Origin: Nitrospirota bacterium
GTDB taxonomy: Bacteria > Nitrospirota > Thermodesulfovibrionia > Thermodesulfovibrionales > Dissulfurispiraceae
Reading direction: 5' to 3'
DNA: 64,000 nt
NCBI GenBank assembly: GCA_963710375.1
Contig: CAVPZX010000004.1
Coordinates: 64,001-128,000, forward strand
Part shown: positions 46,787 to 53,357 of the stretch, piece by piece
Layout of the letters: every line of letters starts with the position of its first letter
Numbering within the stretch: position 1 is the first letter of the stretch
The notes under the pieces: generated by a model
What the model was told of the DNA's origin: nothing
Database searches by the model: none
What the model saw: only the letters and a program-made list of their open reading frames with translations
Translations under genes and position numbers: made by a program

Positions 46787-46862
46787 ATCGTGCCTTGTGA
46801 GATTTTTTTACCTTGAAGAAGCTTATATGCCCGTGAATATCTCCCAGAACTCCGATCTTCAT
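46776..46862 (-). pseudogene. Truncated metallophosphoesterase N-terminus
   Basis: GGAGG SD + MKIGVLGDIHGH... (DxH motif I), stop after 28 aa. Confidence 0.6.
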
Positions 46863-46949: not shown

Positions 46950-47637
46950 TTATTTGTGTTTCTCTGAAACTTTGTTCTTGATCTCTTCCATCCTCTTGGC
47001 AAATGCCTCTTTCTGCCTCCGCTCTGTCTCATCTTTAGGCTCAGATACAGGGTTGGTGACCCTCCATGTGAGACTGGGCGCTTATCGGTCCTTCGGGATA
47101 TGCGCCAATGTCGTGCAGCATATGATTCTCGAACTCTGAAGGGGTTTCCTGGTAACAGGACCAGACAGCCTTTCTTATGAGATCGGGGGTCCCGCGATTG
47201 AGCACATCGATGACCGTAATGATCTGTTTTCTGAAACGCTCGATAAATTCGATAGGGAGGTTGAAGAGATATGGAGTCGGAGCTGTTGTGTTCCTGATTC
47301 TCTTGCGTTCATCAATGCCGTCTTTCAACAGAGACATTATTGCTTCACCCGTAGAATGGCCGGGAGACTCGGGTCCGGTCAGAACAAGATAGCGGATGTT
47401 TGGATTGCCAATGATATTACATATCATTTTCTCGACGCCGATGTTTTCGGTCTGTATCGTCCCTGACAGCGCAGCGCCCGCCTCGACGCCGGTCCTGACG
47501 AGCAGTTCTATGTCCTTCGGGATTTTGTCGTTGTCATAGATCAGTACAACCGCTACCGCTGCAGGAGAATAATCGTTTCCTCTTAGATAGCGGCCTTCTT
47601 CGGTCGGATAATCGGGTGACGGCTCAACCTTGAGCAT
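46950..47637 (-). CDS. Soluble MtrA-like corrinoid protein; apparent frameshift at ~47077 (called ORF ends at 47041)
   Basis: GAALSG..QTENIGVEKMICNIIGNPNIRYLVLTGPESPGHSTGEA...G...RI...AP.PY..N is the MtrA signature with the cobalt-ligating His; alternate frame continues LTWRVTNPVSEP...HK* to 46950. Confidence 0.85.
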
Positions 47638-47656
47638 ACTATTCTCCCTTCATAGG

Positions 47657-48739
47657 TTACGAATGAGGGTTAATCTCGGCCACCTTGCAATATGTGCCCG
47701 AAAAATACTTCCTTTGGAAATAAAAGGCCACGTTCACCAGCCCTATCATGACAGGCACCTCTACGAGAGGCCCTATGACTGCCGCAAATGCCGCCCCTGA
47801 GTTAATGCCGAATACTGCCACGGCAACGGCAATGGCAAGCTCGAAATTATTGCTTGCAGCAGTGAAGGAGAGAGTTGCTGTTTTTGCATAATCAGTGCCG
47901 ATCTTCCTGCCCATGTAGAATGAGACAAGAAACATGACTACGAAATAAATCAGCAGCGGGATTGCTATACGAATTACATCCAGTGGGAGTTTGACAATAT
48001 AATTTCCCTTTAGGGAAAACATGACAACGATCGTAAAGAGGAGGAAGATAAGCGTGACCGGGCTGATTTTAGGTATAAATACCCGCTCATACCATTGACG
48101 GCCCTTTATTTTGAGCAGACTGAACCGGGTGATCATTCCAGCGATAAAAGGGATCCCCAGGTAGATGAACACGCTCTCTGCAATCTGCCTTATTGTGACC
48201 TCGACAACGACTCCCTTGAGCCCAAACCATGCCGGCAGTTTCGTTATGAATATATACGCATAAACCGAATAGAAGAGCACCTGAAAAACAGAATTGAACG
48301 CCACGAGCCCGGCAGCGTACTCGGGATCGCCGCAGGCAAGGTCATTCCACACTATAACCATGGCGATGCAGCGTGCCAGACCGATCATTATAAGTCCGAC
48401 CATATATTCCGGATAGTCATGCAAGAAGATAATCGCCAAAGAGAACATGAGGATAGGACCGATAATCCAATTCTGGACAAGAGACACACCCAGCACCTTT
48501 TTGTTCTTAAAGACTTCGCCCAGTTCCTCATATTTGACCTTTGCAAGGGGAGGGTACATCATGAGGATAAGACCCACGGCAATAGGGATATTGGTTGTTC
48601 CGACCTGAAAACTGTTTATCAGGACCTCCACTCCGGGTATGAAATAGCCGAGACCCACACCCAATGCCATAGCCGCAAATATCCATATGGTGAGATAGCG
48701 GTCAAGAAAAGAGAGTTTCTTATCTTCCATCCGCCCCAT
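47657..48739 (-). CDS. acr3: ACR3 family arsenite efflux transporter
   Basis: [44 protein letters not shown]. Confidence 0.96.
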
Positions 48740-48740
48740 G

Positions 48741-49169
48741 CTATTTTTCCTCTTTAAGCCACTGCTCTATGCGAGACTTGATCTGGTCCCTTATCCTTTG
48801 CGCACCCTGCAATCGTTCTTCATGGGTGCCCTCGAGTTTGGCAGGATCTTCAAAGGGCCATTTAAGCTGCTTCATCACACCCGGGAAGGAAGGGCATCGT
48901 TCGGCGTTTGCATCATCACAAACAGCTATCACATAGTTATAACGCTTTCCTTCCTTATAAAAGTCAAAAGCACTCTTTACCTTGTTGTTAGATATGTCAT
49001 ACCCGGATTCTTTCATCACTTCAACGATCAGCGGGTTCAATGCGGCGGGGCTTAACCCGGCGCTTTCGGCTATGAATCTATCACCAGCCATAGCATTCAG
49101 AAATGTCTCGGCCATTTGACTCCGGGCCGTGTTATGAACACACACAAATAAAACCTTTTTCTTTTCCAT
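48741..49169 (-). CDS. arsC: Thioredoxin-dependent arsenate reductase (LMW-PTP family)
   Basis: [27 protein letters not shown]. Confidence 0.92.
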
Positions 49170-49200
49170 ATTTTTCCTCCCACTGGCAACGGTTTAATAT

Positions 49201-49542
49201 CTAAGCGCACGAAAGCCCTTTTTTATTTTGCCTGAATTCACTCAATCGATTCTGATCCTCTCTGACAGATTCAGAGGATATCTTTTCCAGTACAGTGTGG
49301 ATTAAGAATCTTTTGAACAGATCTGAATCATGGATACTGTAGTGAATCCACTTCCCCTGTCTTCTGTCCTTGATCAGACCGGCGTCTTTCAGAATTTTGA
49401 GATGAAAAGAAACCTTCGGTTGGAACATGTCGAGCGCAGCGACAATATCGCACACGCAGAGTTCTCCGTCTTCCAATAGCTTTAAAGTCCGGAGCCTTGT
49501 CTCATCAGAGAGGGCTTGAAAAACAGAAACTAATTCGTTCAT
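49201..49542 (-). CDS. arsR: ArsR/SmtB metalloregulator
   Basis: ALSDETRL, ELCVCDI, SFHLKIL. Confidence 0.93.
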   Translation of the reverse strand: MNELVSVFQALSDETRLRTLKLLEDGELCVCDIVAALDMFQPKVSFHLKILKDAGLIKDRRQGKWIHYSIHDSDLFKRFLIHTVLEKISSESVREDQNRLSEFRQNKKGLSCA

Positions 49543-49778
49543 TGCTCCTCCTTTAAGAGCAACTTCATTCGCTCAATGCCGGGAAGCGGTTTTCCAGAAT
49601 GCTTCAGTTTACCGTTAATGACAAGACCCGGAGTGGACATGGTATATTTCAGAATTTCCTTCACGTCTGATATTTTGTCGATTTTTGCTTCGATGCCGAG
49701 GTCCTCGATGGCCTGTTTCACGAGTTCCTCCATTTTTATGCAATTTGCACATCCGGGGCCGAGCACTTTGACATCCAT
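49539..49778 (-). CDS. Small redox-active disulfide (thioredoxin-like) protein
   Basis: VLGPGCANC, MSTPGLVING. Confidence 0.9.
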   Translation of the reverse strand: MDVKVLGPGCANCIKMEELVKQAIEDLGIEAKIDKISDVKEILKYTMSTPGLVINGKLKHSGKPLPGIERMKLLLKEEQ

Positions 49779-49789
49779 GGCAACTCTCC

Positions 49790-50140
49790 TTAAAATACTA
49801 TTTTTTCAGATGCATCTCTTATCGCCGCACTGGTCACTTCTGTCTTTCCCTTCTTATACCCGAAATCCTCAAGCATATAAGATTTCGGCGTGAATCCCGC
49901 ATTTTCGAGTATTTTCTTTGCACATAAAGACGCACAGCCGTCAATGGTGACAGTCGCCGCTGCCTTTACCGCGGCTATCTTTTCAGGTATGTTTGCTCCA
50001 ACGGCAGCCATACAATACATCTTACCCTTTCCATCTTTAGATAGTTTTCTTGCAACCTGGTCGGATAACGCCCCTACGTCCGCCGCACCCGAGCAAGAGA
50101 AAATTAGCACATTTTTGTCGCCACATGCGCACTCTGTCAT
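49790..50140 (-). CDS. DGC-domain putative zinc-binding protein
   Basis: CSGAADVG, YCMA, IDGC..LCA. Confidence 0.88.
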   Translation of the reverse strand: MTECACGDKNVLIFSCSGAADVGALSDQVARKLSKDGKGKMYCMAAVGANIPEKIAAVKAAATVTIDGCASLCAKKILENAGFTPKSYMLEDFGYKKGKTEVTSAAIRDASEKIVF

Positions 50141-50179
50141 ATCGTCCTCCTTAAGTTGAAACTTGAAGACCAGCGGTCT

Positions 50180-51127
50180 TCATAAAATCGCATTGAAAAG
50201 ATAACCAACCATAATGATTCCCGTAGCAACAATACCGAAAAAGGTACAGATAAGCCTCATCTTCAGCACTTTCTTTAAAATTACCGCTTCGGGGAAGGAG
50301 ATTGCGGTAACCGACATCATAAAGGCCAGCACCGTCCCTATTGCCATTCCTTTTCCAACAAGGGCCTGGACAACCGGAATCATGCCGGCTGCGTTACTGT
50401 ATAAAGGAATGCCGATCAGCACTGCCACCAGCACACCGAAAGGGTTATCACGTCCGGCATATTTGACAACAAAGTCGGTCGGTACGTATCCGTGGACAAT
50501 CCCTCCCAACGCGATGCCGGCGATAACATAAGGCCATATCCTTTTCAGAAGGTCGGCAGTATAGTCAAGAGCATAATTAATCTTGTAATGGAAACTGGTT
50601 TTCATAATCTCCATGTTCGCCACTTCTGTTTCCCACACATAATCCTGGACATACTTTTCCATCCTGAACCTGCCGATGACGATGCCGGAGGCAATTGCCA
50701 GCACAACCCCGCAACCTGTGTAGATCAGGGAGATCTTCCACCCGAAAAGCCCCCATAACATAATCAAAGCTATTTCATTGACCATAGGGGACGAAATAAG
50801 AAAGGAGAATGTGACCCCCAGTGGTACCCCTGCTTCCACGAAACCGATGAAAAGGGGGACTGCTGAGCAGGAACAAAAAGGGGTGACGATTCCGAGCAGT
50901 GCTGCCATTACATTACCGATGTATTCCTTTTTATGAGACAATATAAGCCTGGTTTTTTCAGGTGGAAAATATGCCCGGATTACTGCCACCGCAAAGATGA
51001 TGGTGCATAGCAGCAGGAATATCTTTATAGTATCGTAGATGAAGAAATTGAGGGCTTCTCCAGCATGGCTCTTTGGCTGCAGCTTCAACAACGAATAAGT
51101 AATGTAATCCGCAAATTCCTGGAGCAT
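50180..51127 (-). CDS. arsP: ArsP-type (DUF318) permease
   Basis: TPFCSCSAVP, SSPMVNE, PLYSN, SFPE. Confidence 0.88.
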   Translation of the reverse strand: MLQEFADYITYSLLKLQPKSHAGEALNFFIYDTIKIFLLLCTIIFAVAVIRAYFPPEKTRLILSHKKEYIGNVMAALLGIVTPFCSCSAVPLFIGFVEAGVPLGVTFSFLISSPMVNEIALIMLWGLFGWKISLIYTGCGVVLAIASGIVIGRFRMEKYVQDYVWETEVANMEIMKTSFHYKINYALDYTADLLKRIWPYVIAGIALGGIVHGYVPTDFVVKYAGRDNPFGVLVAVLIGIPLYSNAAGMIPVVQALVGKGMAIGTVLAFMMSVTAISFPEAVILKKVLKMRLICTFFGIVATGIIMVGYLFNAIL

Positions 51128-51140
51128 TTCACCATCTCTA

Positions 51141-51193
51141 CATATCAACTTAATTTGATGTAATACTTTACCGCATGCTCATTTATTTGTCAA
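51141..51193 (-). promoter_or_regulatory. ars operon promoter (TTGACA-N17-TAAAGT) with ArsR-type operator ATCAA-N6-TTGAT
   Basis: -35 at 51188-51193, -10 at 51165-51170, palindrome at 51144-51159 just downstream of the -10. Confidence 0.75.
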
Positions 51194-51320
51194 GCTTCTT
51201 AACAAACTGGCCCACTAACAATAAAATAGACTAAAAGTCCTTTACCAACACTCGATTGCAGATCTTGACAAATACAAATAATTGAATATAAACTTCCTCT
51301 TGCAGTTAACGGTTCATGAA

Positions 51321-51617
51321 CTAACAGCAGTTGCTCTTCTTGTCGCTGCCACTGCAGTCACAGGAAGGTTCGCCGCCGGTCATCATACTGTTTATAAGAG
51401 CGAAAGCACAGCCTACTCCTTTGTTTACAGACACTGCATTAAAGGCGCAATTGTTCACGCAGGCCCCGCATTCCATACAACTGTCGCGGTCCTGAATTAT
51501 GGCCTTCTTATTATCCAGGGTAAAGACTTCATGTGGACAAACCTCCACGCACATCCCGCACCCTGTACACTTTTCCGGAAAGATCTCGATGGTTGACGCG
51601 TTTAAGAGGTACTTCAT
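51321..51617 (-). CDS. hgcB: Mercury methylation ferredoxin HgcB
   Basis: Two CxxCxxCxxxC motifs including CMECGAC, GVGCA and a C-terminal CC; ATG overlaps the hgcA stop. Confidence 0.96.
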   Translation of the reverse strand: MKYLLNASTIEIFPEKCTGCGMCVEVCPHEVFTLDNKKAIIQDRDSCMECGACVNNCAFNAVSVNKGVGCAFALINSMMTGGEPSCDCSGSDKKSNCC

Positions 51618-52741
51618 ATGACCCCCCACATGGTAAGTTTGTACATTATTAATAGAATCAATGAGACTCCGCAAGAAACAATATAGGTAGGGATAGCAAC
51701 TCGAAGTTCTTGTTTGACTCCCGACATCCCTGTAAACGTAGTTGATCCCGTGAACTGCAGGGCAATGAAAGAACTTGCCGCAGGGAAGAAAAGGTAAGTG
51801 ACCATAAGAAGAAAAGTGTTTTGTTGAATGAGCAATGGAACAAATTTTGACGACAGAAAAACAGAAAGCATCCCGATTATCCACCCCTTGACTGCAAAAG
51901 ACCTGAAGGGGACATAGGGCAGAATCACAGGAGTCAACAGCGCACCAGAAAAGACAGATACAAGGCCTAAAAGCAGAAAGGGCAAGCCCCCGGTGTATGC
52001 GTCTTTAAACATGATGCCTGATGGTGAAAGTCCAAAGACAACCAGGACAAGTGCTGCGTATAACGGGAATTTCTTCATTGCAGGATTGATCTCCATTGGA
52101 GTAAGGACCAATCTGTCGTAAACGGGGAAATTTACCCTCCGCATTTCCCTCGTCGCTTTATACCCCGCCTTGATATAAGCGGGTATATCTTTGGCGCGCA
52201 CCGGTCCGTAAAGGACCTTGAAACCAGAAGACTGTTTTACCTTAAAGGCGCTGACACCTGGCGCTCCAAGCTGGGGGACGATAATCCGCCTGTGGGCCAC
52301 CACCTTGTCCAACTGTGCCGCTGAAATGCGCTTTACCAATTCGGCGGTGCCAAACGTTCCCTTTCCAGCTGCACACCAGACATTAATACCTTTCGTGTCC
52401 AGAACAAGAATCCAGGCATCAAGTCCTTTAAGTGAGCATCTGAGCAAGTCAAAGCTGTATTTATAATTTGCACTGACAAGGACATCCGAGTCCCTGTCAG
52501 GGTCGCCGACAGCGTATAGACCGGCATTGACCGTATAATTGTTCCTGTATGAAGTTGTTCTGCATTTGAAATGTTCCCACTGATCGGTCCTCGAAAGAAC
52601 AGTTGATACCCGGTGAACTGACCCTATCGGCGTCGCAACATTGCCGCTGACCCAATCCGGAGTATTTTTCAGCGACACACTACAGCATGTCTGCCCCGGC
52701 ATCTGATTTTCCAATCTGGATCTGAATTTAAGTTCCTGCAT
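51614..52741 (-). CDS. hgcA: Mercury methylation corrinoid protein HgcA
   Basis: SANYK, cap-helix GINVWCAAGKGTF, PQLGAPGV, C-terminal TM region with FTGSTTFT. Confidence 0.97.
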   Translation of the reverse strand: MQELKFRSRLENQMPGQTCCSVSLKNTPDWVSGNVATPIGSVHRVSTVLSRTDQWEHFKCRTTSYRNNYTVNAGLYAVGDPDRDSDVLVSANYKYSFDLLRCSLKGLDAWILVLDTKGINVWCAAGKGTFGTAELVKRISAAQLDKVVAHRRIIVPQLGAPGVSAFKVKQSSGFKVLYGPVRAKDIPAYIKAGYKATREMRRVNFPVYDRLVLTPMEINPAMKKFPLYAALVLVVFGLSPSGIMFKDAYTGGLPFLLLGLVSVFSGALLTPVILPYVPFRSFAVKGWIIGMLSVFLSSKFVPLLIQQNTFLLMVTYLFFPAASSFIALQFTGSTTFTGMSGVKQELRVAIPTYIVSCGVSLILLIMYKLTMWGVI

Positions 52742-52753
52742 ATTCGAAAACTC

Positions 52754-53038
52754 TTACAGTATTTCCTTGAGTATAGGACCTAGCTGGCCTTTGACCATTT
52801 CGACCATGTCTTCAACCTTAATCAGGGTTATACAGCATACCTCTCCATTCTTCTCCCAACTGGTCACTGCCAGTTTGTCGCCGGCCTTGATCTTGGCCTT
52901 GTCCCGCAATTCCTTGGGCAGCACCATTTGTCCTCTTTCATCCACACTAATGATAGACTCGACCTTGCAGCTTGCATTTGTCCTGTTCGAGGATATGCCG
53001 CAGGTCACACTCTCTTGTTTTTTCATGTTGCTCTCCAC
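52754..53038 (-). CDS. hgcC: HgcAB-associated AbrB/MazE-type DNA-binding protein (HgcC)
   Basis: CKVESIISVDERGQMVLPKELR...AGDKL...VCC; directly upstream of hgcA. Confidence 0.85.
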   Translation of the reverse strand: MESNMKKQESVTCGISSNRTNASCKVESIISVDERGQMVLPKELRDKAKIKAGDKLAVTSWEKNGEVCCITLIKVEDMVEMVKGQLGPILKEIL

Positions 53039-53048
53039 CTCAATTATC

Positions 53049-53299
53049 TTGCAATTCAGACGGTGTAATGAAGGATGTGTCTCTGAAGCGAATCGCGGAG
53101 TCCTGGTAACAGTTCTCGGCGAAGTGAGCGTCTAACAGGCGCAATGTCCGAGCCCGAAGAACCGGGGTCCCCAAAAAGTCGAAGACTTTGTGGGGTGGCG
53201 GAAGAGTTTTGCGACTGTAGCGAACAAGCCGTTAGAACTGTCAGGATGTAGCGCCTGAGCGCAAAAGACACATCCTTCATTACACCGTCTGAATTGCAA
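53049..53299. mobile_element. MITE family C, copy 2 (34-bp perfect TIRs, nested ~40-bp insert) in the hgc leader
   Basis: TTGCAATTCAGACGGTGTAATGAAGGATGTGTCT...AGACACATCCTTCATTACACCGTCTGAATTGCAA. Confidence 0.88.
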
Positions 53300-53316: not shown

Positions 53317-53357
53317 CTGAATATTCTGATTATACTGATATAAGTTATTAATGTCAA
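53317..53357 (-). promoter_or_regulatory. Perfect sigma70 promoter (TTGACA-N17-TATAAT) for hgcCAB, overlapped by three 9-bp direct repeats
   Basis: -35 at 53352-53357, -10 at 53329-53334; CTGAATATT/CTGATTATA/CTGATATAA at 53317-53343. Confidence 0.85.

Follow-up and report, generated by a model that had tools for sequence, protein, structure and literature searches.

Wagner et al. (PMC4915002) noted that some bacteria have soluble homologues of the methyl carrier MtrA, most of which retain the His; extracts of that paper give no function for them. Cobalt-bound methyl groups can reach arsenic: according to extracts of PMC6950371 and PMC13262295, methylcobalamin with GSH turns As(III) into MMAs(V)/DMAs(V), and the methanogen MtaA/methylcobalamin system methylates arsenic. 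In purified HgcAB the methyl group comes from SAM, and a Co(I) protein is able to draw methyl from this donor (PMC11588087, extract); linkage of hgcAB with ars genes is also known (PMC7438021, 10.1101/2022.10.17.512643). ArsH and ArsI are oxygen-dependent (extracts of PMC9213503 and 10.64898/2026.08.27.747368), and the dimethylarsenic reaching rice is set by anaerobic methylation together with demethylation, with an anaerobic mechanism that extracts of PMC10579292 and 10.64898/2026.08.27.747368 call unresolved. Here we describe an MtrA-like protein encoded in an arsenic operon.

The locus and its MtrA-like protein

Open reading frames of the window (the whole stretch of 64,000 nucleotides analysed) and profile searches gave ten genes, hgcC-hgcA-hgcB-arsP-DGC-Trx-arsR-arsC-acr3-mtrA-like, all on the minus strand. 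Order and labels are those of an earlier sequence-only reading, and the profile matches agree with them. The features are as follows:

46950..47637, minus strand: mtrA-like gene, soluble product, PF04208; 228 aa once the extra base at 47073 is discounted
47073..47073, no strand: extra assembly base, an apparent frameshift; missing in contigs of X1, X2 and X4
47657..48739, minus strand: acr3 arsenite efflux pump; TIGR00832 467.6, cut-off 282.8
48741..49169, minus strand: arsC-type arsenate reductase, LMWPc fold; PF01451; Cys10, 84, 92
49201..49542, minus strand: arsR repressor; NF033788; ELCVCDI (Cys29, Cys31)
49539..49778, minus strand: MTH895/ArsE-type thioredoxin-like protein; TIGR00412; CxxC
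49790..50140, minus strand: DGC-domain protein with six Cys; PF08859
50180..51148, minus strand: arsP-family permease; PF03773; likely start the ATG near 51127
51142..51161, no strand: predicted ArsR operator heading the ars operon, palindromic ATATCAA-N6-TTGATGT
51165..51193, minus strand: TTGACA-17-TAAAGT in the hgcB-arsP gap, a predicted sigma-70 promoter for the ars operon
51321..51611, minus strand: hgcB ferredoxin; NF040864 118, cut-off 99
51614..52741, minus strand: hgcA; NF040863 402.8, cut-off 275; cap motif NVWCAAGK
52754..53038, minus strand: hgcC, AbrB/MazE-type; NF040962 120 bits, cut-off 70
53049..53299, no strand: MITE-like repeat of 251 bp; its terminal inverted repeats, 34 bp each, are perfect
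53329..53357, minus strand: predicted hgcCAB promoter, TTGACA-17-TATAAT, 12/12; kept in three same-genus genomes

A gap of 19 nt separates acr3 from the start of the mtrA-like gene downstream of it, and the arsC-type product matches PF01451 while falling under the TIGR02691 cut-off. The hgcCAB and ars genes are co-oriented as had been claimed, but two transcription units are predicted and not a single one: hgcB and arsP are separated by a conserved promoter/operator, both predicted. No terminator was predicted in the hgcB-arsP gap. The palindrome, also present before arsP/DGC in 10 relative loci, is a candidate ArsR operator. hgcC is separated from the predicted hgc promoter by the inserted MITE-like repeat.

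In the window the mtrA-like ORF (47041-47637, 198 aa) ends early. One base at 47073 is missing in contigs of runs X1, X2 and X4, with no other difference listed, and the X3 contig breaks at this position; X1 and X2 possibly come from the very sample behind the assembly. The frameshift is an assembly error, and the intact gene is therefore 46950-47637 minus one base, encoding 228 aa; close relatives are of equal length.

The protein exceeds the curated PF04208 cut-off (130.3 bits versus 25), and the TENIG, NPNIR and ESPGHSTG motifs reported from the sequence are all in the ORF. The cobamide-site residues of MtrA given in the extracts of Wagner et al. (PMC4915002) align with Y17, T63, E64, N65, G67, N74 and H94. 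His94, equivalent to the cobalt ligand His84, is kept in 279/281 relatives, and Glu64, equivalent to its partner Glu54, in 280/281. Two Cys, Cys73 and Cys161, are family-specific and near-invariant (Cys73 kept in 277/281, non-Cys in 7/7 outgroup rows). As had been read, there is no membrane anchor: beyond residue 160, hydropathy over 19 residues peaks at -0.02 in relative P0002 and at 2.18 in a true MtrA, and the C-terminal helix of the protein is charged. At E<=0.001 a structure model of P0002, of moderate confidence (pLDDT 71.7; the other four models 44-58), matches MtrA chains only (7 matches), with TM of 0.78-0.84 of target to 5L8X/5LAA (0.84 to 5l8x_A). The claim of a soluble MtrA-fold protein with cobamide-binding residues in an ars operon is thus supported, and we predict that it very probably binds cobamide through His94. 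Among close relatives, P0248 is fused to a 2x[4Fe-4S] ferredoxin, P0250 to an Fe-S domain and P0280 to ArsC (one record). Distant MtrA domains carry thymidylate-synthase-like (13/33) or pterin-binding (7/33) fusions among picked long matches, and the MtrA domain therefore has other one-carbon jobs too.

The host genome, G000 (98.8% complete), has a single PF04208 gene. The window holds no other Mtr subunit, as stated before, and a genome search for MtrH (no PF02007 match) and MtrE found neither. The operon also lacks arsM, again as read, and the best ArsM score in the whole genome is 74.7 against a cut-off of 263. G000 also encodes two RACo activators and AcsC/D, next to which lies a pterin-binding gene; B12-binding profiles give 21 matches over cut-off.

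Arsenic genes around mtrA-like genes

The genome loci examined were the best 80 of 306 by similarity, and kin among them are not independent. We defined an ars neighbour as acr3, arsC, arsP, arsM, arsA or arsD within 5 kb of the mtrA-like gene. Such neighbours occurred in 47/80 of these loci (best 80 of 306) versus 0.8% at random places in G000, in 25/36 of those with 5 kb on both sides, and in 59/80 metagenome loci. Outside one Desulfobacterota clade the figures within the best 80 of 306 were 44/54 and, with full flanks, 23/25. As a control, MtrA-DUF4346 fusions of the same class were near those ars genes in 0/11 cases. The ars-linked loci span about 13 phyla with reshuffled gene order; the mtrA-like gene recurs in arsenic-resistance operons. 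Our literature search found no report linking the protein with such operons.

Within the best 80 of 306 genome loci, acr3 was the commonest neighbour (34/80, often adjacent), arsC was found in 19/80 (39/80 in metagenomes), and organoarsenical genes were frequent, with arsP or arsM in 31/54 outside the Desulfobacterota clade; a few loci had ArsF/ArsG matches. The expected neighbourhood enrichment was thus found for acr3, arsP, arsC and arsM and not for hgcA (4/80). Full-score arsM lay within 5 kb in 13/80 (best 80 of 306), so the gene neither requires nor replaces ArsM everywhere: the proposed ArsM-independence holds in G000 and 10/12 family carriers but not at these loci. CoA-disulfide reductase and AhpD/CMD, suggested as sources of reductant, were near in only 3/80 and 6/80 (best 80 of 306) and are not regular partners. 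In the loci examined no methyl-donor enzyme is kept beside the gene, and genes of the met, thy or cob type do not regularly adjoin it; RACo adjoins it in one Chloroflexota locus (L078).

In the Desulfobacterota clade (26 loci, best 80 of 306) acr3, arsC, arsP, arsA or arsD were nearby in 0/26 and an ArsM-like gene in 3, with no common neighbour and no operator-like site upstream. All five tested genomes of this clade have acr3 elsewhere (5/5), and stray corrinoid-linked neighbours occur (DUF3786 in L060, URO-D/MtaA-like in L030). In the host's family the mtrA-like gene is present in 12/67 genomes and acr3 in 43/67; most acr3 operons of the family are without it, and the gene is therefore accessory. 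In a Planctomycetota sample it was found in 5/301.

Proposed function and alternatives

A role of the MtrA-like protein in arsenic handling is likely, and methyl transfer to or from arsenic rather probable. Our tentative proposal is that it is a cobamide protein methylating trivalent arsenic without oxygen. As(III) would take ArsR off the operator before arsP. The Co(I)-cobamide would get its methyl from SAM or from the cell's methyl-THF:corrinoid methyltransferase (no dedicated partner is conserved), and arsenite or methylarsenite may be held or delivered as a thiolate by Cys73/Cys161, DGC or Trx. Passage of the methyl cation to arsenite or methylarsenite would yield a pentavalent, less toxic methylarsenical and Co(I), with ferredoxin or a RACo activator returning any stray Co(II) to Co(I). 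Anaerobes could in this way disarm methylarsenite, made by their own ArsM or by neighbours, without oxygen, the job of oxygen-dependent ArsH in air. Observations that speak against methylation are the Desulfobacterota clade without ars context (26/80, best 80 of 306), the apparent redundancy of a second methylase where arsM is near (13/80, same set) and the absence of a conserved methyl-donor enzyme beside the gene.

That the protein shuttles methyl groups or cobamide for HgcA within a mercury-methylation unit, as suggested earlier, is highly improbable. The suggestion draws on the co-orientation of hgcCAB and ars genes without a predicted terminator between hgcB and arsP, on L003 and L093, where hgcAB and the mtrA-like gene share one operon, and on hgcA within about 6 kb in 4/12 family carriers. 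However, hgcA is near in only 4/80 genome loci (within 5 kb; best 80 of 306) and 3/80 metagenome loci, and genome co-occurrence is nil: in the family hgcA is in 7/12 carriers versus 25/55 non-carriers (Fisher p 0.53), 25/32 hgcA-positive genomes are without the mtrA-like gene, 5/12 carriers are without hgcA, and 0/5 carriers from other phyla (incomplete genomes) have it. Moreover, hgcAB occurs in 6/18 acr3 loci lacking the mtrA-like gene, in same-genus genomes hgcCAB is joined to arsC-acr3 and the mtrA-like gene is missing, and the ars operon has its own predicted promoter/operator. SAM is the methyl source of HgcAB (PMC11588087, extract), whose ars linkage was already published (PMC7438021, 10.1101/2022.10.17.512643). 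The three-way cluster exists here because hgcAB and the mtrA-like gene each attach to ars operons independently; hgcA and hgcB are neighbours of the latter, not partners.

Working in the opposite direction, the protein could be an oxygen-free methylarsenic demethylase whose cobamide is methylated by MAs(III)/DMAs(III) and which leaves arsenite to Acr3. We regard this as unlikely: removal of a methyl cation by Co(I) requires pentavalent or onium arsenic, the direction is opposite to the known in vitro chemistry, a futile cycle would arise with arsM in the operon (13/80, best 80 of 306), and a methyl-acceptor enzyme is not conserved nearby. In its favour, Acr3 is the most frequent neighbour (34/80, same set) and often the next gene, and G000 and 10/12 family carriers, without full-score ArsM, would profit from destroying their neighbours' MAs(III); ArsI needs oxygen, and extracts of PMC10579292 and 10.64898/2026.08.27.747368 call the anaerobic demethylation mechanism unresolved and describe DMAs(III) demethylation by a methylotrophic methanogen. 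It is also unlikely that direct arsenic chemistry is lacking and that the protein is a one-carbon/cobamide helper recruited into ars operons (storing methyl groups for the synthesis of methionine/SAM or dTMP, or acting as a cobamide chaperone, and so making up for the harm that arsenite does to thiol and B12 enzymes) or a passenger of a mobile metal-resistance island. The Desulfobacterota clade (ars context 0/26, best 80 of 306; stray corrinoid-linked neighbours), the RACo neighbour in Chloroflexota L078, the distant thymidylate-synthase-like and pterin-binding fusions and the patchy presence (12/67 and 5/301) are consistent with this, but passive carriage does not account for the gene being kept in the reshuffled ars operons found in about 13 phyla, or for the near-invariant extra Cys, and met, thy or cob genes are not regular neighbours. 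Quite improbable, in our view, is that cob(I)amide acts without methyl transfer as a two-electron reductant of pentavalent methylarsenicals, or of As(III) to volatile arsines, feeding ArsP/Acr3. The frequency of arsC (19/80 genome loci, best 80 of 306; 39/80 metagenome loci), the ArsC and ferredoxin/Fe-S fusions and the hydride formation reportedly favoured by cob(I)alamin (PMC6950371, extract) point to it; the intact His-Glu lower-ligand switch of methyl carriers, the thioredoxin-linked ArsC already covering reduction and the toxicity of arsine argue against it.

Meaning and comparison with known systems

We give slightly less than even weight to the wider view that the MtrA-like protein represents a new arsenic enzyme class: an ArsR-controlled cobamide methyltransferase, gene-transferred among anaerobes of at least 13 phyla, that would make or break C-As bonds without oxygen or ArsM and lie behind part of the unexplained methylarsenic turnover of flooded soils. 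Sister forms fused to unnamed Cys-rich domains would then belong to a wider B12 metal(loid) methyl family parallel to HgcAB. As the protein is soluble and 228 aa long, has a solved homologue and offers a defined His ligand, the question of how arsenic is methylated and demethylated in anaerobes can be tested directly. The negative HgcA result is useful in itself, and the label 'tetrahydromethanopterin S-methyltransferase subunit A' is an annotation trap for such genes in non-methanogens.

The protein has the fold of MtrA of the Na+-pumping methyl-H4MPT:CoM methyltransferase MtrA-H (TIGR01111; PDB 5L8X, 8Q3V, 9QTQ), shares its His/Glu lower-ligand pair and nucleotide-tail residues, and is about 35% identical to Methanosarcina MtrA. 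Unlike that subunit it has no membrane anchor and no MtrE or MtrH in the genome, misses the TIGR01111 equivalog cut-off (124.4 versus 249.15, for the frame-shortened 198-aa ORF), and has a 10-residue insert before strand 2, Gln62 for Lys, Cys73, a conserved DxGAYP...TWRVTxP tail and a bacterial ars-operon setting. The cytoplasmic methanogen homologues (M. fervidus, PDB 5LAA; MtxA-type) are likewise soluble and stand-alone, 5LAA binding cobalamin His-on, and the NF002126 cut-off is passed (165.7 versus 161). In contrast, NF010654 (PRK14053) is missed (96.4 versus 279) and there is no MtxH/MtrH partner; 5LAA is 97% identical to its own membrane MtrA and of 170-180 aa, whereas the MtrA-like clade is about 230 aa, ars-tied and separate in a quick tree (support 99).

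ArsM, ArsH and ArsI are ars-operon enzymes acting on methylarsenic, and the drop in MAs(III) proposed for the MtrA-like protein is an outcome shared in part with them. Their folds are unrelated, however, and ArsM uses SAM and Cys without cobalt while ArsH and ArsI need oxygen; to our knowledge, and with no counter-example in our literature search, none of them uses cobamide. HgcAB resembles the proposed protein in cobamide-based toxic-metal methylation, SAM use and frequent ars linkage, but has a CoFeSP-type fold, a Cys ligand and membrane helices, is not homologous and does not co-occur. In methanogen arsenic methylation by MtaA/methylcobalamin (Thomas 2011, Wuerfel 2012, extracts) a cobalt-bound methyl likewise reaches arsenic, there as an unregulated side reaction (PMC13262295, extract), whereas the MtrA-like protein would be dedicated to it and ArsR-controlled.

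The MtrA-like gene and its operon

We compared the open reading frames of the window with protein profiles and recovered all ten genes of the sequence-only reading on the minus strand, with its order and labels: hgcC-hgcA-hgcB, then arsP-DGC-Trx-arsR-arsC-acr3 and the MtrA-like gene. HgcA, HgcB, HgcC and Acr3 passed curated cut-offs in this search. The MtrA-like gene matched PF04208 with 130 bits and scored above the cut-off of NF002126 (165.7, cut-off 161) and below that of TIGR01111 (124, cut-off 249). The nearest named relatives of its product, from Dissulfurispiraceae and other Nitrospirota, are 75-87% identical, which makes it probable that the host belongs to this group. Its ORF in the window ends at 198 amino acids and the family C-terminus runs on in another frame. 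Base 47073 is absent from the assembled contigs of three sequencing runs (X1, X2 and X4), the contig of a fourth (X3) breaks there and no further difference was listed, with the caveat that X1 and X2 are possibly the source sample. The absence of the extra base from three contigs rules out a real pseudogene or a programmed frameshift, and the organism carries an unbroken gene.

46950-47637, minus strand: MtrA-like gene, 228 amino acids after removal of one base (contig comparison at 47073)
46790-46862, minus strand: short stub of an ORF, located between the MtrA-like gene and that for CoA-disulfide reductase, resembling by eye the start of a YfcE-type metallophosphoesterase

Two other ars loci, L013 and L093, contain complete YfcE genes.

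Wagner et al. (PMC4915002) listed the residues of M. fervidus MtrA that contact cobalamin. Residues Tyr18, Thr53, Glu54, Asn55, Gly57, Asn64 and His84 of 5LAA align with Y17, T63, E64, N65, G67, N74 and H94 of the MtrA-like protein. Of 281 partly redundant aligned rows, drawn from the loci and from protein databases, 279 retain H94 and 280 retain E64, and C73 and C161 are conserved in 277 each; the C73 position holds a cysteine in none of the seven outgroup rows. Structure work was done on an intact relative, P0002, which is 94% identical. Its AlphaFold model (pLDDT 71.7; 44-58 for the other four models) retrieved MtrA chains as its sole matches at E<=0.001 in a fold search. A sequence check found no membrane helix, in agreement with the earlier view that the protein has no anchor. 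The ars operon ends in an intact gene whose soluble product has the MtrA fold, the cobamide ligands and, in addition, two cysteines; this protein probably binds a cobamide.

The gap of about 170 nt between hgcB and arsP holds a predicted promoter and a palindrome, and further elements lie around hgcCAB:

51193-51165: predicted promoter in the hgcB-arsP gap (promoter prediction)
51142-51161: palindrome before arsP, conserved in 10 relative loci
51265-51294, plus strand: promoter-like sequence directed into hgcB in antisense; conserved ahead of the ars operon in one related locus (L003)
53049-53299: MITE-like element of 251 bp that separates hgcC from the hgcCAB promoter; its terminal inverted repeats are perfect over 34 bp
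53357-53329: perfect predicted hgcCAB promoter, conserved in three same-genus genomes

The palindrome, ATAT(A/C)AA-N6-TT(T/G)AT(A/G)T, recurs in 10 relative loci chosen by hand, 30-45 nt ahead of arsP or DGC. Leave-one-out scanning placed it first within its own locus in seven of them and second in one; in the other two the in-register palindrome was top-ranked and the automatic pick was one base off. A matrix scan ranked the window palindrome 8th across the 3.19-Mb genome. The exact palindrome by itself is weak (one match, equalled in 17 of 100 shuffles); its position and its conservation are what lend it weight. We regard it as a predicted operator to which ArsR would bind; a literature check gave no confirmation of the ArsR consensus sequence. 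No terminator was predicted after hgcB, and read-through into the ars operon is therefore possible. In the same-genus genomes the hgcCAB promoter is close to hgcC, without the MITE-like element, of which the host genome holds about 10 further near-full-length copies (79-95% identical). This element may alter hgcAB expression, and the antisense site is perhaps the remnant of a divergent gene.

Recurrence in ars operons of many phyla

For the neighbourhood survey we took the 80 best loci among 306 genome matches and likewise the 80 best among 586 metagenome matches. Their ORFs were labelled by BLAST to the window and to cluster references that had been verified with NCBIfam and Pfam. One or more of acr3, arsC, arsP, arsM, arsA and arsD lie within 5 kb of the gene in 47 of the 80 genome loci, a sample skewed to close relatives in which kin are not independent, against a background of 0.8% at random places in the host genome. 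Restricted to genome loci whose flanks both reach 5 kb, the count is 25 of 36; for metagenome loci it is 59 of 80. Within 5 kb in the 80 genome loci we found acr3 in 34, arsP in 22, arsC in 19 and an arsM-like gene in 16, 13 of which pass the ArsM cut-off ('MerBtrx' counts, mostly thioredoxin-domain matches, were left out). The neighbourhood enrichment suggested as a check on the sequence-only reading is thus present for ars genes, including acr3 and arsP, but not for hgcA (4 of 80).

In a quick maximum-likelihood tree (91 rows) the MtrA-like family forms one clade with support 99 and long outgroup branches, and the loci without ars neighbours cluster in one Desulfobacterota clade. There, acr3, arsC, arsP, arsA or arsD is near in none of 26 loci and an ArsM-like gene below cut-off in three; outside it, an ars gene is near in 44 of 54 loci, and in 23 of the 25 with full flanks. 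The ars-linked loci span about 13 phylum-level groups, judged by record title, and differ in gene order: arsR-arsM-acr3-arsC-gene in Terriglobia, arsR-arsP-gene-CMD-arsM-acr3 in Planctomycetota, arsR-arsP-trx-gene in Aerophobetes and arsP-DGC-trx-arsR-acr3-gene-Trx fold-CcdA in Nitrospirota. As a control, we chose 11 MtrA-DUF4346 fusions within the same class; none had ars neighbours. The MtrA-like gene recurs in ars operons of many phyla, independently of Mtr and HgcA. The chief argument against a role confined to arsenic comes from the Desulfobacterota copies: we found no neighbour common to them, and the stand-alone copies showed no operator-like site in 29 upstream regions or in a separate matrix scan, the matrix being trained on Nitrospirota sites.

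Several other genes accompany these loci. A Trx-fold and CcdA/DsbD (ArsF/ArsG-like) pair, absent from the window, follows the gene in most Nitrospirota loci (L002, L005, L007-L010, L013, L222); CcdA is near in 16 of 80 loci with the gene, and the pair occurs in 1 of 18 acr3 loci without it. Some ars operons that contain the MtrA-like gene along with arsM also have a fusion of thioredoxin to MerB (alkylmercury lyase domain), as at L145:2769-4067; the cluster is represented in L037 and L045 too. In L004, L005, L085 and L087 a molybdopterin oxidoreductase operon with cytochrome c and a TorD chaperone stands beside or inside the ars cluster; the oxidoreductase is best matched by PhsA-like proteins and falls far under the ArrA cut-off.

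Fusions and the Cys-rich domain

Searching 1.84 billion representatives with a profile, we obtained 884 matches. Among 33 longer matches picked from the 150 listed, one carries a 2x[4Fe-4S] ferredoxin, one an Fe-S domain and one ArsC, which fits a redox-cycled cobamide in an arsenic context. Thirteen others carry a thymidylate-synthase-like domain and seven the pterin-binding DUF4346, which shows that the wider MtrA domain has other one-carbon jobs. The thymidylate-synthase-like fusions (P0273, P0276, P0278, P0284, P0287, P0289, P0297, P0299 and P0300) possibly serve cobamide-linked nucleotide methylation.

Longer relatives number 167 proteins of at least 400 amino acids; the 120 listed are mostly 50-60% identical and have an unnamed C-terminal Cys-rich helical domain, and 14 of them an N-terminal GxCCL TusA-like piece. 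This long subfamily (410-500 amino acids; P0122-P0240; L226-L230, L187) has a C-terminal domain without Pfam or NCBIfam match. Its model was too poor overall (pLDDT 55) and the top Atlas match (0.77) was uninformative. A stand-alone copy of the domain follows the gene in L226-L229, and in L230 one precedes an MtrA-like gene that has a twin-arginine-like leader. The host genome has a stand-alone homologue at C4:292219-292569 (= L239:8220-8570), divergent from genes that resemble a phosphonate uptake/C-P lyase operon. This homologue occurs in 26 of 67 genomes of the host's family; it does not track the MtrA-like gene (4 of 12 carriers versus 22 of 55 non-carriers), which rules it out as a trans partner. 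Genes for small membrane proteins bearing a CCG(A/S)P motif stand immediately ahead of long or fused MtrA-like genes (L187:6889-7440, with a weak MerT match below cut-off, E 5e-4, and L238:1741-2220).

A further architecture, Cys-rich domain-MtrA-DUF4346, was seen in L178-L186, L188 and L189; in 9 of these 11 loci, parAB-like genes follow immediately downstream. Comparison of the two kinds of Cys-rich fusion domain gave an hhalign probability of 19%. In one family of the class, PF04208 matches occur in 41 of 46 genomes, mostly as frames of about 400 amino acids.

Partners and candidate reactions

The host genome (98.8% complete) holds one PF04208 gene and neither MtrH nor MtrE, which widens from window to genome the earlier remark that Mtr partners are missing and, with the missing membrane helix, rules out membership in an Mtr complex. 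It also holds two RACo activators, AcsC/D with an adjoining pterin-binding gene and a B12-binding/URO-D/RACo cluster, so that cobamide, a methyl-donor system and reactivators are at hand. ArsM was not found in this genome. Among the 12 family carriers a full-score ArsM is present in two and a weaker match in three more, none adjoining the MtrA-like gene. Of the 54 loci that fall outside the Desulfobacterota clade, 31 have arsP or arsM nearby, and four have both. ArsM is thus rare among family carriers, but operons of Acidobacteriota and Planctomycetota contain both arsM and the MtrA-like gene, so the protein neither needs nor excludes ArsM; the proposed ArsM-independence stands for the host and most family carriers and not for those operons.

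A methyl or cobamide shuttle for HgcA, the other role first proposed, found no backing. Only 4 of 80 genome loci and 3 of 80 metagenome loci (best 80 each) have hgcA within 5 kb. In the 67 family genomes a close form of the gene (at least 74% identity) occurs in 12, hgcA in 32 (30 above cut-off), acr3 in 43 and full-score arsM in nine; hgcA is present in 7 of 12 carriers versus 25 of 55 non-carriers (Fisher p 0.53), two of these 25 having a 50%-identity form of the MtrA-like gene. None of five carriers from other phyla, all incomplete genomes, has hgcA. On this co-occurrence we reject an HgcA partner, giving the shuttle very little chance. From the 31 full-score acr3 matches lacking the MtrA-like gene we retrieved 18 loci, six of which contain hgcAB, and three same-genus genomes carry hgcC-hgcA-hgcB-arsC-acr3. 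Linkage of hgcAB to ars genes has been published (PMC7438021; 10.1101/2022.10.17.512643), and purified HgcAB takes its methyl group from SAM (PMC11588087). The window cluster is best read as two independent attachments, hgcAB and the MtrA-like gene, to one ars operon.

We infer arsenic induction of the MtrA-like protein as well as its reaction. Anaerobic demethylation of DMAs(III) is real and unexplained (PMC10579292); for the MtrA-like protein we consider a role as methylarsenic demethylase unlikely. We also think it unlikely that the protein is a one-carbon helper or a passenger, and a function as Co(I) reductase seems more improbable still.

His-on methylcobamides give a methyl cation to soft nucleophiles, coenzyme M being the acceptor of MtrA. 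Together with the oxygen need of ArsH and ArsI, this leads us to favour over all rivals, albeit tentatively, an oxidative methylation in which the MtrA-like protein would convert arsenite or methylarsenite to pentavalent forms. A conserved methyl donor for this reaction was missing at the loci surveyed.

The MtrA fold has been described, as have soluble homologues in bacteria, to which no function was assigned (PMC4915002). Searches of open-licence papers yielded none tying MtrA-like genes to ars operons, and the main text of a 2026 paddy-soil preprint does not mention mtrA (10.64898/2026.08.27.747368). ArsH and ArsI both need oxygen (PMC9213503; 10.64898/2026.08.27.747368), and under the oxidative methylation that we favour the MtrA-like protein would be an oxygen-free counterpart of ArsH.
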